DNA of 64,000 nucleotides, taken from NCBI RefSeq assembly GCF_036365525.1, contig NC_090399.1, positions 46,098,430 through 46,162,429 on the forward strand, in the 5' to 3' direction. Made by a program: the position numbers and the translations under genes. Below the pieces are notes generated by a model that was given only the letters and a program-made list of their open reading frames with translations, did no database searches and was not told the DNA's origin. The DNA comes from Heterodontus francisci (Eukaryota). Positions 14,114 through 49,215 of the stretch are shown here, piece by piece (the stretch's first letter is position 1; every line of letters begins with the position of its first letter).

Positions 14114-14218
14114 CTCTCTTTTTGTAGATGAAGAAAGCCAAGATAATGAGACCGATGACCAGCACAATCCCGAGCACAATACCGACAACAGCAGGGACCT
14201 GGGAGTCTGACTGGGGAC
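14114..14218 (-). CDS. MHC class I connecting peptide/transmembrane exon (3' boundary uncertain)
   Basis: Long polypyrimidine tract, then cag|GT CCC CAG (phase 1). Encodes GPQSDSQVPAVVGIVLGIVLVIGLIILAFFIYKKR: a hydrophobic helix plus basic stop-transfer. Possible donor AGA G|gtagga. Confidence 0.88.
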
Positions 14219-14224
14219 CTGTCA

Positions 14225-14525
14225 GTGAGAAACAGAGAGACAATCAGAGAGAGACACAGAGAGGGAGAAGGAGACAGGGAGTGTGAGAGAGGGGGAGGAG
14301 AGAGAGGGAAGGAGGGGATAGGGACAGGGATAGACAGAGGGAAATAGGGAGTGTGTGGGGTGAGAGAGAGAGGGAAGGAGGGATAGGGACAGGGAAAGAT
14401 AGAGGGAAACAGGGGAGAGTTGTGGGGGCAGAGAGAGAGGGAAAGTGGCTGTAGGGACAGGAACAGACAGAGGGAAATAGGGAGTGTGAGGGGGAGGAGA
14501 GAGAGGGGATAGGGACAGGGTCAGA
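14225..14525. repeat. GA-rich low-complexity repeat (sense-strand polypyrimidine upstream of the TM exon)
   Basis: Repeated ggggatagggacagg/gagggaaatagggagtgtg motifs. Confidence 0.8.
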
Positions 14526-14699
14526 CATTGAGGATCAGAAAGAGACAGGATTAATATTGTACTGGAGGGAACCCAGAACCACCCCCCACCGATCTGATTG
14601 AAATTTAATATTAGCCATGTCCAGTGCCCACATTCACCCTGTAGATCTGGTCTCTGTGGGTGTGGCACACAAACACACTTTACAAATGTTATTGGTCCT

Positions 14700-15066
14700 C
14701 GTACTGTAATATCCCAGGATACACCGAGCCCTGGTATACTCTAATATCCCAAGATACACTGGGCCCTGTTGTACAGTAATATCCCAGGATACACCAAGCC
14801 CTGGTATACTCTAATATCCCAAGATACACTGGGCCCTGTTGTACAGTAATATCCCAGGATACACCGAGCCCTGGTATACTCTAATATCCCAAGATACACT
14901 GGGCCCTGTTGTACAGTAATATCCCAGGATACACCGAGCCCTGGTATACTCTAATATCCCAGGATACACTGGGCCCTGTTGTACTGTAATATCCCAGGAT
15001 ACACCGAGCCCTGGTATACTCTAATATCCCAGGATACACTGGGCCCTGTTGTACTGTAATATCCCA
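14700..15066. repeat. 35-bp minisatellite (gtaatatcccaggatacactgggccctgt...), left part, 70-bp dimer structure
   Basis: Visible tandem units alternating between two variants; ends abruptly at the Gypsy 5' LTR. Confidence 0.95.
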
Positions 15067-15068
15067 TG

Positions 15069-16069
15069 TGTTATGAAAGTTCCTCTGTGTTTTGTTAAAT
15101 ATATTTTTTGAGGATTCATTTTTGAAAGATTGAAGAAATGTTAAGCTTTGGGTTTTCAAAGGGGGTCATGTAAAGGCCATTTGACTTTGAAAAAACAGTC
15201 CCTGGAAATGTTTTTAAAAGGGGCAATGAGAGGTCTGCTGAGAAAAACAAGTCTTTCAGGGAAACCACTTGCCGTCCAGCAACAACAACAAGCCTTTCCA
15301 GGAAACCACCGGACTTCCAGCTCAATAAACAACAGAGAACTTTGGGCACCTGGAGAAGTTGTTTACAAAGAAGTGACAGGTCAAGATTGATGAAGGTCAA
15401 AAAGGTTCACTTTGGAATTGTTTTGAGTTAGGGTGAAAATGTACAAAAAGGGAGAGAACTTCCAAATAAGGAGAGAACACCACAGCCCAGCTCAGCTTTC
15501 CAGCACTTCCCTAAGAGATCCTGAGAAGTCCACTGTGTCAACTCATCTCAGCTCCTGTCTTTGTAGAAAAGCCTGCTAAATTAATTCTCAATGCCGTCTG
15601 AAAAGAACTGTTCTAAAAGATCCTCGTGACCCATCTACGTGTACTCAGAGGCTAGACTATATGCCAGTTTTGGAACACAACATATCTCATCTGCTGTTTC
15701 TTCCAGAATGAGCAAGTATTTGGCTCAAGTGTTTTTTTGTCTGTAACAGAGCTCTAAAAACAAAAATTCCTTTATTTTCCATTTAATCAGTACGTGTGCG
15801 TGAGTGTGAGGGGTTAAGGTAAAAAAAGAACTTTAATATTTCAATCGATGTGTTTATGATTTAATTCATTACTGGTTAAGATGTGTTCTATAATAAACTG
15901 ATAATTTTGTTGTTTATTAAAGAAACCTGGCTGGTGTGTTTTCTTCTGGGATAAAGAGTAGAGTTTATGATTGACCATATCGGTAAGTGGGAAAAATTTA
16001 AATATATTGTGACCCATAGAGAAGTGAAACTAGAATAAACAGAGCACTCCTCTTGTCTTGGTCATAACA
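15069..16069 (+). repeat. 5' LTR of the Gypsy element
   Basis: TG...CA termini with short inverted repeats; alignable with 22601-23634 (ORFs 15148 and 22714 are paralogous). Confidence 0.9.
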
Positions 16070-47700: not shown

Positions 47701-48085
47701 GTGGCAGCAGTGTGTACCATCTACAAGATGCACTGTCACAACGCACCAAGACTACTCAGACAGCACCTTCCAAACCTGCGACCTATACCACCTAGAAGGA
47801 CAAGGGCAGCAGATGCATGAATACACCACCACCTTCAAGTTCCCCACCAAGCCACACACCATCCTGACTTGGGACGATATTGCATTCCTTCACGAGGTCA
47901 AAATCCTGGAACTTCCTAACAACACAGAGTTCCATTCCCGGGACTCAGGGCTCCACCCTACGGGTACAGAGCTCCACACCACATGAACTGCAGTGGTTCA
48001 AGTAGGCGGCTCACCACCACCTTCTCAAGGGCAATTATGGATGGGTCTTGCCAGCGATGCCCACATCTCATACAACGAGTAAAAC
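44782..48085 (+). mobile_element. Most complete copy of the tRNA-headed CR1/L2-group LINE
   Basis: Head ggaggcgatggcgtcgtggtaat...ggttcaaatccc; ORFs 45515-46507 (YRPPS, GDFNVHH, GRSDH) and 46535-47113 (NYRPISLL, ALDIKAAF), MFADD; decayed tail. Confidence 0.92.
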
Positions 48086-48339
48086 AACCTCAGCACCCAG
48101 CTGGTCATACATGACCTGGAAAGCTGGGGCTGTTTAAAGCACTCCCTCAACTCCTCCTAACCTGATCCACATATTTAAAGGACCCCCCTGTAATCTGTTC
48201 TGTGTGTTTAGTAGACCCCCGAGATGAATGGACTGACCAGGTGCCCAATTCATATATTTCATGAATCCCAGCATTCAATCAATGGATTTAAAGGGCCCAG
48301 TGGACACTGATCTCAGTACCTAAAGGAGTCCCTGGAACC

Positions 48340-48580
48340 CGAATAGAGAGACACGGATGTGGCAGGATGGGAGCATGAATAGAGAGAAAAGGAGATGGTG
48401 AATAGAGAGACATGGGGGAGAACAGAGACACATGGGGGAGAATAGAGAGTCACGGAGGAGAATAGAGAGACACGGGGTGAATAGAGTGAGACATGGGGAG
48501 AATAGAGAGACACACGGGGAGAATAGAGAGACACGAGGAGAATAGAGAGACACGAGGAGAATAGAGAGACACGCGGGGAG
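48340..48580. repeat. ~19-20-bp minisatellite (gaatagagagacacgggga)
   Basis: Visible tandem copies. Confidence 0.85.
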
Positions 48581-48639
48581 TGGAGCTGGAGGATCTGATT
48601 TTCCTTCGCCTAAAAGTTAATCGATCTCCGAAATGACAT

Positions 48640-48870
48640 GACACAGAGTTCTGTCCAGCCCTCGGGACACGACTCCATGCCGGGGTCACAGAACTCCACC
48701 CCCTGGGACACAGAGCTCCACCCACAGGATACAGACCTCCATCCCCTGGACACACAGCTCCACCCCTGGGACACAGAGCTCCACCCCCGGGACACAGAGC
48801 TCCACCCCCGGGACACAGAGCTCCATCCCCGGGACACAGAGCTCCACCCCTGGGACACAGCCTGCTCCAC
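48640..48870. repeat. 21-bp minisatellite (ctccacccctgggacacagag) near the alpha1 donor
   Basis: Visible tandem copies; translates as (GVELCVP)n in the read-through ORF. Confidence 0.9.
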
Positions 48871-48954
48871 CTGCCCCCATCTCCACTGACCACCCACCCC
48901 TTCCCACCCCCAACCCCCCACCCCCGCCGCCCCTCCACCAACCTCCAGACTCAC

Positions 48955-49215
48955 CCTCACTCTGTCCGTTCAGGGACATGAAGTATGGAATATCGGCTTT
49001 CAGTCCATGCTCCCCCTCCAACATGAGTTGTGATAACTGCTCCCAGGACAGTGGTCCCTGAACGTCCATCATCCACTGATCTCGAGTGATCAACTTCTTC
49101 CGATCGCTGTCATACACAACAAGCTGGATCTCGTCCAGATACATGACTGCCACAAAATCTGGCACACCGGGAATCGGAGTCATGAATGTGATGAAAATAT
49201 GGATAGAGTGAGAAC
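48955..49215 (-). CDS. MHC class I heavy chain (non-classical), alpha1 domain exon
   Basis: Acceptor tctctgtttcag|GT TCT CAC and donor GAG G|gtgagt; 261 bp, phase 1/1. Translation GSHSIHIFITFMTPIPGVPDFVAVMYLDEIQLVVYDSD...DQWMMDVQGPLSWEQ...NGQSE matches the class I alpha1 pattern (GSHS, P-x-F-V-A-V, LD, YDS, W60). Confidence 0.95.

Follow-up and report, generated by a model that had tools for sequence, protein, structure and literature searches.

A spliced, expressed horn-shark gene of UBA-type class I with a hydrophobic and largely anchorless groove

Introduction

No living vertebrates with an MHC are older than the sharks, whose families of nonclassical class I genes are only now being mapped. 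Nine residues of class I molecules bind the peptide termini (Y7, Y59, Y/R84, Y123, T143, K146, W147, Y159, and Y171), and a class I gene of Heterodontus francisci, the horn shark, that lacks most of them raises the question of whether it is a working gene, to which family it belongs, and what its groove may hold. All of its exons but the leader lie in a 64,000-nucleotide stretch of contig NC_090399.1, called the window here. A first-pass annotation had described it as an intact-frame, strongly nonclassical class I gene with a hydrophobic groove, possibly of a poorly described or new lineage.

Results

Gene structure and predicted fold

The exons found in the window and the main features of two introns are as follows.

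11326..11372, minus strand: tail exon, the last coding exon, with a 15-residue cytoplasmic tail and a TGA stop (tblastn with P0005 residues 318-332)
14114..14218, minus strand: connecting-peptide/TM exon, 105 nt, phase 1 (100% tblastn match, P0005 residues 283-317)
25765..26028, minus strand: alpha3 exon, 264 nt, Ig C1-set domain (Pfam C1-set, 1.5e-16)
26114..41751, no strand: minisatellite of intron 3, 26-bp unit, about 603 copies, 82% matches (Tandem Repeats Finder)
41741..42013, minus strand: alpha2 exon, 273 nt (Pfam MHC_I, 2.1e-14)
42020..47585, plus strand: degenerate LINE fragments of intron 2, endonuclease and reverse transcriptase (ORFs; Pfam Exo_endo_phos_2 and RVT_1)
48955..49215, minus strand: alpha1 exon, 261 nt (Pfam MHC_I, 1.2e-8)

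The alpha1, alpha2, alpha3, and TM exons, whose outer ends are 14114 and 49215, are all phase-1 exons on the minus strand, flanked by AG acceptor and GT donor sites. Their translations are free of stops, as expected from the intact frame claimed for them. The gene is longer than this interval, having a tail exon and a leader exon besides; the latter sits beyond the window, roughly 6.2 kb inside the adjoining contig stretch. The frame is open over all six exons, with a total spread of about 59 kb and canonical splice sites, and the 3' UTR extends below 11200. With MHC_I alpha1-alpha2 domains, a C1-set alpha3 domain, a TM segment, and one phase-1 exon per domain, the product has the makeup of the class I heavy-chain fold family, and the alignment contains both cysteine pairs, C101-C164 and C203-C259. 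The product is identical to the NCBI model XP_067865827.1 (Heterodontus francisci), and a search with alpha1 alone for longer proteins returned, among 12 candidates, the gene's own model only. The automatic name of that model, 'MHC class I-related gene protein-like', is taken from MR1. The minisatellite of intron 3 is C-rich on the plus strand and adjoins the alpha2 donor site, and a GC-skew plateau at 26-42 kb lies over it; the LINE fragments of intron 2 run antisense to the class I gene.

The AlphaFold2 model (mean pLDDT of 81.2) exhibits the class I topology, with both helices, the eight-strand floor, and a TM helix at residues 290-319, so that a normal class I heavy-chain fold is predicted. 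The top Foldseek match is the nurse-shark class I structure 6lup (E 9e-30, 44% identity, TM 0.79), which is also the best solved relative by sequence (alpha2 1.6e-19, alpha1 1.8e-15).

Transcription and splicing

Expression data came from four runs (X1-X4) of one sample, the kind of run being our guess. In three of the four runs, a 451-nt contig links alpha1 to alpha2, passing from 48954 to 42012 with zero mismatches; in all four, contigs ending at 26028 carry on into the alpha2 exon (the alpha2-alpha3 joint). A 793-nt contig of run X3 joins 11372 to 14114, where CT..AC on the plus strand corresponds to GT..AG on the minus strand, and extends 512 nt past 11200; this TM-tail joint is present in one of the four runs. 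The alpha3-TM joint was not seen among the contigs of X1-X4, and the 49-50 extra letters that the 451-nt contig carries past alpha1 are consistent with a leader-alpha1 joint. Across the unique intron bins between 48125 and 48907, cover was 0 in X1, X2, and X4, and in X3 a single bin reached 0.78. The exons, by contrast, were covered, and none of the 93 matches in the shark's own genome is an intronless copy. The joining of alpha1 to alpha2, alpha2 to alpha3, and TM to tail at the predicted splice sites indicates that the gene is transcribed and spliced; the spliced contigs from this one sample thus remove the first-pass annotation's provision that the gene might turn out not to be transcribed. 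Two differences in alpha3 were seen in the data of the same sample.

Loss of the peptide anchors

A MAFFT alignment of 79 proteins provided the residue numbering, with a classical class I sequence from hamster as the reference. Among the nine termini-binding residues, only W147 and Y159 are kept, compared with means of 4.5/9 in UBA-type and 7.3/9 in classical-type proteins; conservation of all nine is the classical (UAA) pattern. The remaining seven are substituted (Y7>I, Y59>S, R/Y84>L, Y123>M, T143>V, K146>N, and Y171>C), as the first-pass annotation had read them, which removes anchors for the peptide N-terminus (Y7, Y59, and Y171) and for its C-terminus (R/Y84, T143, and K146). The alignment likewise agrees that the N86 glycan site is lost, position 86 being G (N-G-Q). 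New sequons occur in alpha2 (N-T-S) and alpha3 (N-S-T), and judged by these the glycan site is relocated, not simply lost. The structural and beta2-microglobulin (beta2m)-related residues said to be retained, H3, D29, W60, H93, Q96, C101, C164, D119, G120, D122, and P235, are all in place. Because contact residues are kept, we infer pairing with beta2m.

Hydrophobicity of the groove

Groove composition was compared among 57 elasmobranch rows, including 30 UBA-type and 22 classical-type, over 35 positions that follow the HLA-A2 pockets and rely on an alignment gapped in alpha1. Mean hydropathy at these positions is 1.59, second among the 57 rows and far above the UBA-type (0.57, n=30) and classical-type (-0.13, n=22) values. 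The residues A, V, I, L, M, F, or C occupy 23 of the 35 positions (means of 17.7 for UBA-type, n=30, and 12.6 for classical-type, n=22), and three of the 35 are charged. The hydrophobic groove of the earlier description is therefore borne out. Comparison with the UBA-type protein O19480 revealed identity at 9/35 groove positions and 73/139 positions elsewhere (Fisher p 0.0047), indicating that the changes are concentrated in the groove. Weighing the other way, positions outside the groove have changed too: identity to O19480 there is 53%, versus 69-83% in the six pairings of O19480 and P0036 to ordinary UBA-type rows. The groove of paralogue B is just as oily (hydropathy 1.49), though it differs at 19 of the 35 groove positions, with 11 of the 19 differences being nonpolar for nonpolar. 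That the two reach the same oiliness through different residues argues for selection on greasiness and against drift.

Since most anchor residues are lost and the groove is unusually oily, its ligand is probably not an ordinary peptide. Judged by groove composition, presentation of a lipid or metabolite is plausible. A CD1 molecule is expected to have a deep hydrophobic groove for lipid tails; the observation that bears on this here is the strongly nonpolar composition (23/35).

Placement in the UBA-type family

Four maximum-likelihood (ML) trees placed the gene and paralogue B, paired with 100% support, inside the UBA-type clade that holds the founding sequences of the lineage, O19480/AAC60348 of the horn shark and O19479/AAC60347 of the nurse shark, which we take to be the clones Hefr-19 and Gici-11 of Bartl 1997. 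Support for this clade with the gene included was 96 SH-aLRT, 98 SH-aLRT in the alpha1-alpha2 tree, and, under two models, 99/98 and 99.8/100 (LG+F+G4 for the latter). The trees exclude the gene from the classical-type groups, contrary to the possibility that it would nest within classical UAA alleles. Its stem branch is long, with 0.64-0.94 changes per site. AU tests in IQ-TREE rejected neither a placement of the pair outside the other UBA-type rows (p 0.47) nor one outside all other elasmobranch rows (p 0.13); the treekit values, p 0.71 and 0.54, refer to a quick free tree that scored below the constrained ones. The free ML tree is better by 21 lnL units than the tree with the pair 'outside all'.

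Identity to the horn shark protein O19480 is 80% in alpha3 and 52% in alpha1, and the leaders of the two are identical; identity to the classical-type O19481, also from the horn shark, is 64% in alpha3, 31% in alpha1, and 45% overall. No relative above 61% identity was found outside the horn shark, either by a word-indexed search or by an exhaustive HMMER scan of 1.84 billion representatives. On the 74.5-Mb contig (C29), UBA-type alpha3 exons with 77-81% identity occur at 32.2-32.9, 40.4, and 42.3-42.9 Mb, the gene's own sublineage at 46.1-46.6 Mb, and classical-type (O19481-like) copies at 66.2-67.0 Mb. The gene thus belongs to a multicopy cluster that shares a contig with the classical-type copies and stands apart from them; according to Verissimo 2023, the UBA genes form a cluster of several copies that is on the MHC chromosome but separate from the class Ia region. 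The lineage name follows the review PMC12562908, which cites Bartl 1997. Literature searches on the names Hefr-19, Gici-11, and UBA, on the hydrophobicity of shark UBA, and on class I of Heterodontus francisci returned nothing on this sublineage, and lineage-labelled class I matches were not found in the supplement of Verissimo 2023.

We conclude that the gene is most likely a new, fast-evolving member of the known multicopy nonclassical UBA-type family rather than a new lineage. With two of nine termini residues kept and a position in the UBA-type clade, its strongly nonclassical character stands. The proposal of a poorly described or new lineage is not supported, given the leader shared with O19480, the ML trees, and the existing NCBI model, with the AU tests leaving other placements formally possible.

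Discussion

Competing explanations

We favour, with a probability of roughly 0.55, an intact, transcribed class Ib gene of the UBA family whose groove diverged fast and whose product would pair with beta2m and carry a hydrophobic ligand that is non-peptide or bound in a non-canonical way. One duplicate within the multicopy family would have diverged rapidly in its groove-forming domains; its heavy chain would fold normally and reach the cell surface with beta2m; its groove would probably hold a hydrophobic non-peptide, or a ligand bound non-canonically; and this ligand might be shown to innate-like lymphocyte receptors. It is also conceivable, though rather doubtful, that this molecule still presents peptides non-canonically, as hydrophobic peptides or lipopeptides with open ends or central anchors, and UBA-type molecules in general may do likewise. 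The intermediate anchor count and hydropathy of the UBA-type relatives, lying between this gene and classical-type proteins, would fit such a molecule, as would the retained W147 and Y159 and the modelled helices and floor, but seven of the nine anchors are gone, few charged groove positions are left, and the observations would suit lipid binding as well. Equally tentative is the bolder idea that a young UBA offshoot specific to the horn shark re-invented a CD1-like lipid groove, with an unpaired C171 in the A pocket, and that greasy, anchorless derivatives arose independently in houndshark (P0035/P0036) and sawfish (P0057). If true, peptide presenters would have given rise to non-peptide presentation again and again among the class Ib families of elasmobranchs.

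An expressed duplicate of the UBA cluster that is decaying, with relaxed constraint on the groove, drift toward a pseudogene, and no specific ligand, appears unlikely, although several observations point that way. The NG86 dN/dS values against paralogues are close to neutral in alpha1 (0.74-0.80); the long stem branch, the loss of the N86 sequon, and the short tail fit as well. In addition, the introns are swollen by the 15.6-kb minisatellite and LINEs, sister copy C has a truncated and frameshifted alpha2 with no alpha3 nearby, and for copy A no alpha1 lies within 18 kb. Against decay, dN/dS spans 0.35-0.80 and is below 1 in every exon pair, with 0.35-0.66 in alpha2 and alpha3; a ratio near 1, named by the first-pass annotation as a sign of a pseudogene, is approached in alpha1. 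The open six-exon frame with its splice sites in use, the retained cysteine pairs and structural and beta2m residues, and the new sequons substituting for N86 argue likewise, and the equal greasiness of the two paralogues through different, mostly nonpolar-for-nonpolar residues would be unexpected under drift. Were the groove merely drifting, the gene would be one more multigene-family member being lost in the ordinary course of birth and death. Still less probable is a separate, older class Ib lineage, either new or UFA/UGA, that resembles UBA only through gene conversion of alpha3 and leader with neighbouring UBA genes. The drop in dS from 0.46-0.51 in alpha1 to 0.09-0.10 in alpha3 fits homogenisation of alpha3, the AU tests (with the treekit values tied to their poor free tree) permit such a placement, and CD1-like UFA/UGA are mentioned in Verissimo 2023 and in a 2025 review. 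Yet the tree of alpha1-alpha2 alone still falls inside the UBA-type clade, alpha1 is much closer to O19480 than to O19481, and the free ML tree scores above the constrained one. Moreover, UFA/UGA are described as common to sharks and rays, whereas this gene is without a close relative beyond the horn shark.

Comparison with known systems

Among solved structures, the matches that rank second are MR1 chains, with alpha2 E values of about 1e-15 to 3e-16 and Foldseek identities of 32-34%. MR1 is marked by a Schiff-base lysine and an aromatic cradle. The gene nests among elasmobranch class I genes and is therefore not an MR1 orthologue; a table in PMC12562908 lists MR1 as absent from cartilaginous fish. 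With CD1 the product shares a predicted greasy groove in a heavy chain of class I type, expected to associate with beta2m. No CD1 chain occurs among the best 60 sequence matches or among the listed Foldseek matches, and the 15-residue tail, which ends in Y, lacks a Y-x-x-hydrophobic endosomal motif of the CD1 kind; the gene is not a CD1 orthologue. The CD1-like shark genes UFA/UGA are mentioned as unpublished or personal communication in PMC10751288 and PMC12562908, the latter describing them as single or low copy, common to sharks and rays, and located in the UDA/UEA cluster. Compared by description only, they differ from the present gene in this wider distribution.

The UEA/UCA class Ib lineages of sharks were reportedly described by Almeida et al. 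(J Immunol 2021) as having a hydrophobic groove. By that account they resemble the gene in having exchanged the invariant termini residues for hydrophobic ones and in being multicopy and MHC-linked; on description, the gene differs from them in grouping with UBA-type sequences. Classical UAA molecules are marked by high polymorphism and ubiquitous expression. With those represented by 6lup and O19481, the gene shares the exon plan, cysteines, and structural residues, whereas it falls outside the classical-type groups in the ML trees and has lost the anchors that they largely keep.

The closest comparison is with shark UBA (O19480 and O19479), with which the gene has in common the leader, the clade, multiple copies on the contig, I/V143, and a residue other than Tyr at position 59. 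Most UBA-type rows keep Y7, R84, Y171, K63, and E163, whereas the gene has I, L, C, L, and I, in addition to fewer termini residues, a far oilier groove, no N86 sequon, an unrelated 15-residue tail, and its long stem. According to PMC12562908, UEA is more ancient than UBA, and UBA is derived from UAA. The gene illustrates how far a UAA-derived UBA-type member can shift while remaining intact, spliced, and expressed. Its nearly anchorless, oily groove, together with an apparently parallel shift in a ray and in a shark of a different order, makes it a tangible candidate, open to cloning, with which to ask if cartilaginous fish evolved lipid-type or other non-peptide presentation more than once, beside the CD1-like UFA/UGA.

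Gene structure and intronic repeats

The first-pass annotation had placed a class I-like gene at 14114–49215 of the window, and both limits proved to be exon ends of a single minus-strand gene, whose extent exceeds that span by a tail exon and a leader exon. The leader exon was absent from the window when searched for there; it lies ~6.2 kb into the next contig stretch, ~21 kb upstream of alpha1, and has a canonical donor. The window corresponds to bases 46,098,430–46,162,429 of a contig 74.5 Mb long; the whole genome comprises 6.0 Gb. The six-exon product is identical at every letter to XP_067865827.1, a 332-aa Heterodontus francisci model automatically given the name "MHC class I-related gene protein-like" by NCBI, and is a class I heavy chain consisting of a signal peptide, groove domains, an Ig domain, a transmembrane (TM) segment, and a 15-residue tail.

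Features of the gene in the window (the alpha1, alpha2, alpha3, and TM exons are each phase 1 and stop-free, with an AG acceptor and a GT donor)
49215..48955, minus strand: alpha1 exon, Pfam MHC_I
42013..41741, minus strand: alpha2 exon, Pfam MHC_I
26028..25765, minus strand: alpha3 exon, Pfam C1-set
14218..14114, minus strand: TM exon
11372..11326, minus strand: tail exon with the stop codon, beyond the span first annotated
26114–41751: 26-bp minisatellite, ~603 copies, 15.6 kb, filling nearly all of intron 3
17100–22150 and 42020–47585, plus strand: degenerate intronic retroelement pieces (LINE endonuclease and reverse transcriptase, integrase zinc-binding domain)

The minisatellite directly abuts the alpha2 donor; because its unit carries a donor-like GTGAGTGAGG motif, it offers hundreds of decoy 5' splice sites. 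Intron 3 measures only ~0.8–0.9 kb in A and B, two horn-shark paralogues which, together with this gene and a third copy, C, form a sublineage.

Transcription and splicing

Expression was analyzed in four runs of one sample containing the alpha2 exon; the run search returned no run containing the exon that was recorded as RNA. Over 41600–49400, a 451-nt contig, found in three of the four runs, joined 42012 to 48954 with 6,941 bases skipped and zero mismatches, and extended 49–50 letters past alpha1. The skipped stretch has CT..AC ends, which on the gene's strand are GT..AG. Cover was nil in the unique intron bins at 48125–48907, save in one run, where a single bin showed a trace (0.78). In all four runs, records ending at 41741 resumed at 26028, the alpha2–alpha3 joint; the loose end recorded there belongs to the alpha2 exon. 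The contigs use the first donor despite the minisatellite decoys. A 793-nt contig from one run joined 11372 to 14114, while no alpha3-to-TM joint was seen in the contigs of the four runs over 11200–26100. Contig depth was very high over the intronic retroelement pieces, as expected of repeats. Because no intronless copy occurs among 93 own-genome matches, we took the contigs as spliced RNA. The gene is transcribed and spliced in this sample, and the untranscribed pseudogene that the first-pass annotation had allowed for is not what we found. Contigs of three runs differed from the genome in alpha3 at 25872 (C>T, a Ser-to-Asn change when read on the gene's strand) and 25889 (A>G, silent), matching copies A and B at both positions; an allele, a tract of gene conversion, or a mixed assembly could account for this.

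Relatives in the horn-shark genome

Searching the horn shark's own genome returned 93 matches at exon level, including the following on contig C29.

Class I relatives on C29
46.24 Mb: copy A
46.49 Mb: copy B (XP_067865829/830)
46.55–46.56 Mb: copy C
32.2–32.9, 40.4, and 42.3–42.9 Mb: ordinary UBA-type alpha3 exons (77–81% identity)
66.2–67.0 Mb: copies like the classical-type protein O19481

Copy A has alpha2 (72% identity), alpha3 (92%), TM, and tail exons, with no alpha1 exon within 18 kb. Copy C (L036 2900–3166, L037 7758–7985; C29 46.548–46.563 Mb) is probably a pseudogene: its alpha1 is open and keeps the N-Q-T sequon, its alpha2 is truncated and frameshifted, with the first strand absent and the initial part out of frame, and a search of ~12 kb downstream revealed no alpha3. 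Another class I family, whose alpha3 is ~45% identical to that of our gene, has at least ten near-identical copies at C29 57.4–62.8 Mb and on contigs C815, C1290, and C1655. Horn-shark protein P0066, from an unplaced 275-kb contig, has 9/9 classical residues and 39 member sequences, and may belong to that family.

Constraint was estimated by the Nei-Gojobori method, exon by exon, for the gene against its paralogues.

Substitution rates
alpha1: dN/dS 0.74–0.80, dS 0.46–0.51
alpha2: dN/dS 0.44–0.63, dS 0.18–0.35
alpha3: dN/dS 0.35–0.66, dS 0.09–0.10

The alpha1 ratio would fit a functional domain as well as a functionless one. The drop in dS from ~0.5 in alpha1 to ~0.09 in alpha3 suggests that the Ig exon has been repeatedly homogenized among sublineage copies, so the domains of these genes may differ in history.

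Family placement

A word-indexed full-protein search matched 79 proteins, headed by the gene's own model; next came a paralogue from the horn shark (75% identity) and then many shark proteins at 50–61%. Scanned exhaustively with HMMER, 1.84 billion cluster representatives yielded no match nearer than the paralogue (75%) and a UBA-type representative from Mustelus (59%), and no orthologue outside the horn shark was visible in either search. In these searches several ray models (P0006, P0007, P0010, and P0088; 476–654 aa) matched in two or three stretches; each seems to comprise two joined class I units, either tandem genes merged in annotation or real fusions. Full-length identity was 59% to horn-shark O19480 and 51% to nurse-shark O19479, both of which we take to be Bartl clones, and 45% to O19481. 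By exon, identity to O19480 was 80% in alpha3, 52% in alpha1, and 43% in alpha2, and to O19481 64%, 31%, and 43%, respectively; the gene and O19480 have an identical leader of 17 residues.

In a quick tree of 69 rows, the gene was united with paralogue B (support 100, stem 0.64), and the pair fell among the 41 rows of a clade that includes O19480 and O19479 (96). The pair fell within a 35-row clade (98) in the tree of alpha1 and alpha2 only, and the clade with O19480 and O19479 received 99/98 in a careful LG+C20 tree and 99.8/100 under LG+F+G4, where the pair's sister is another gene of the horn shark and all three belong to a horn-shark group of six rows. All four trees put the pair in the UBA-type clade. 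AU tests speak against a firm claim: they did not reject placing the pair apart from the other 32 UBA-type rows (delta lnL 6.3, p = 0.47) or, under a constraint that brings two long branches together, apart from every other elasmobranch row (delta lnL 21.4, p = 0.13). We read the gene as belonging to the UBA type, most likely as an offshoot that has evolved fast in the horn shark (probability about 0.8), and consider a separate old lineage improbable. The new lineage suggested by the first-pass annotation was not supported, since the trees nest the pair in a known family and NCBI already has an automatic model of the protein; we read the gene as a further member of that family. PMC12562908 applies the name UBA to the expanded family that Bartl 1997 first reported, derives it from UAA, and lists UEA as older and UDA, UFA, and UGA as single copy.

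Anchor residues and groove hydrophobicity

Residues were called from an alignment of 79 relatives numbered on hamster classical class I, and re-checked in a nine-sequence alignment. The earlier manual alignment was correct item for item: I7, S59, L84, M123, V143, N146, and C171 replace the usual residues, and only W147 and Y159 remain of the nine that hold peptide termini. H3, D29, W60, H93, Q96, C101/C164, D119-G120, D122, and P235 are all kept. The N86 glycan site is lost as claimed (G86, in N-G-Q), and new sequons in alpha2 (N-T-S) and alpha3 (N-S-T) indicate that glycosylation was probably relocated rather than lost. L84 is common to every alpha1 exon of the sublineage, and the M123-M124 pair, N146, W147, and C171, a free cysteine, are common to the gene, A, and B.

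The groove was measured at 35 lining positions, taken from the HLA-A2 pockets, by nonpolar count and mean Kyte-Doolittle hydropathy.

Groove composition (nonpolar positions; hydropathy; termini residues kept)
This gene: 23/35; 1.59; 2/9
Paralogue B: 23/35; 1.49; 2/9
30 UBA-type rows: mean 17.7/35; 0.57 (range 0.17–1.88); mean 4.5/9
22 classical-type rows: mean 12.6/35; −0.13; mean 7.3/9
2 mammalian rows: mean 11.0/35; −0.18; 9/9

The hydrophobic groove noted earlier is thus borne out against both UBA-type and classical-type rows. It contains three charged residues, and among 57 elasmobranch rows only Mustelus P0036 is oilier. At 19 of the 35 positions the gene and B have different residues, and 11 of these 19 swaps (hand count) are nonpolar for nonpolar, the best hint that greasiness itself may be maintained. 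Identity to O19480 was 9/35 in the groove and 73/139 elsewhere (Fisher p = 0.0047); the latter, 53%, likewise falls well short of the 69–83% in six pairs of O19480 or P0036 with ordinary UBA-type rows.

Nearly all termini residues are also gone from the very hydrophobic UBA-type proteins P0035 and P0036 of Mustelus asterias and P0052 and P0057 of Pristis pectinata (0/9 and hydropathy 1.88 in P0036; 0/9 and 1.23 in P0057). As the trees place P0036 among ordinary Mustelus copies, the combination looks like an independent, parallel change.

Proposed function and comparison with known class I systems

The hydrogen-bonding tyrosines, T143, K146, and R84 close both groove ends on the peptide; this groove lacks them and its lining is mostly aliphatic. 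With its contact residues kept, the heavy chain would pair with beta2m and reach the cell surface, where the groove would most likely hold a hydrophobic ligand, or a peptide in another binding mode, and show it to receptors of innate-like lymphocytes. A literature search, with two key J Immunol papers outside its scope, found nothing on a greasy UBA-type sublineage or horn-shark class Ib genes. Anchor loss and hydrophobic grooves were reportedly described in other shark class Ib lineages by Almeida in 2021. PMC10751288 and PMC12562908 mention CD1-like UFA and UGA among the shark class Ib lineages.

The AlphaFold2 model (55-row alignment; mean pLDDT 81.2, pTM 0.60) exhibits the standard eight-strand floor, two helices, Ig domain, and TM helix. 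Foldseek ranked the nurse-shark class I structure 6lup first (E = 9.2e-30, 44% identity), followed by MR1 chains (32–34%) and fish class I, with no CD1 chain among the matches listed. 6lup is also the best solved relative of alpha1 (1.8e-15) and alpha2 (1.6e-19), with MR1 and class I molecules of birds or fish next. Unlike CD1, the protein has no tyrosine sorting motif in its tail, and there is no sign of common descent with CD1, which points against a CD1-style route.
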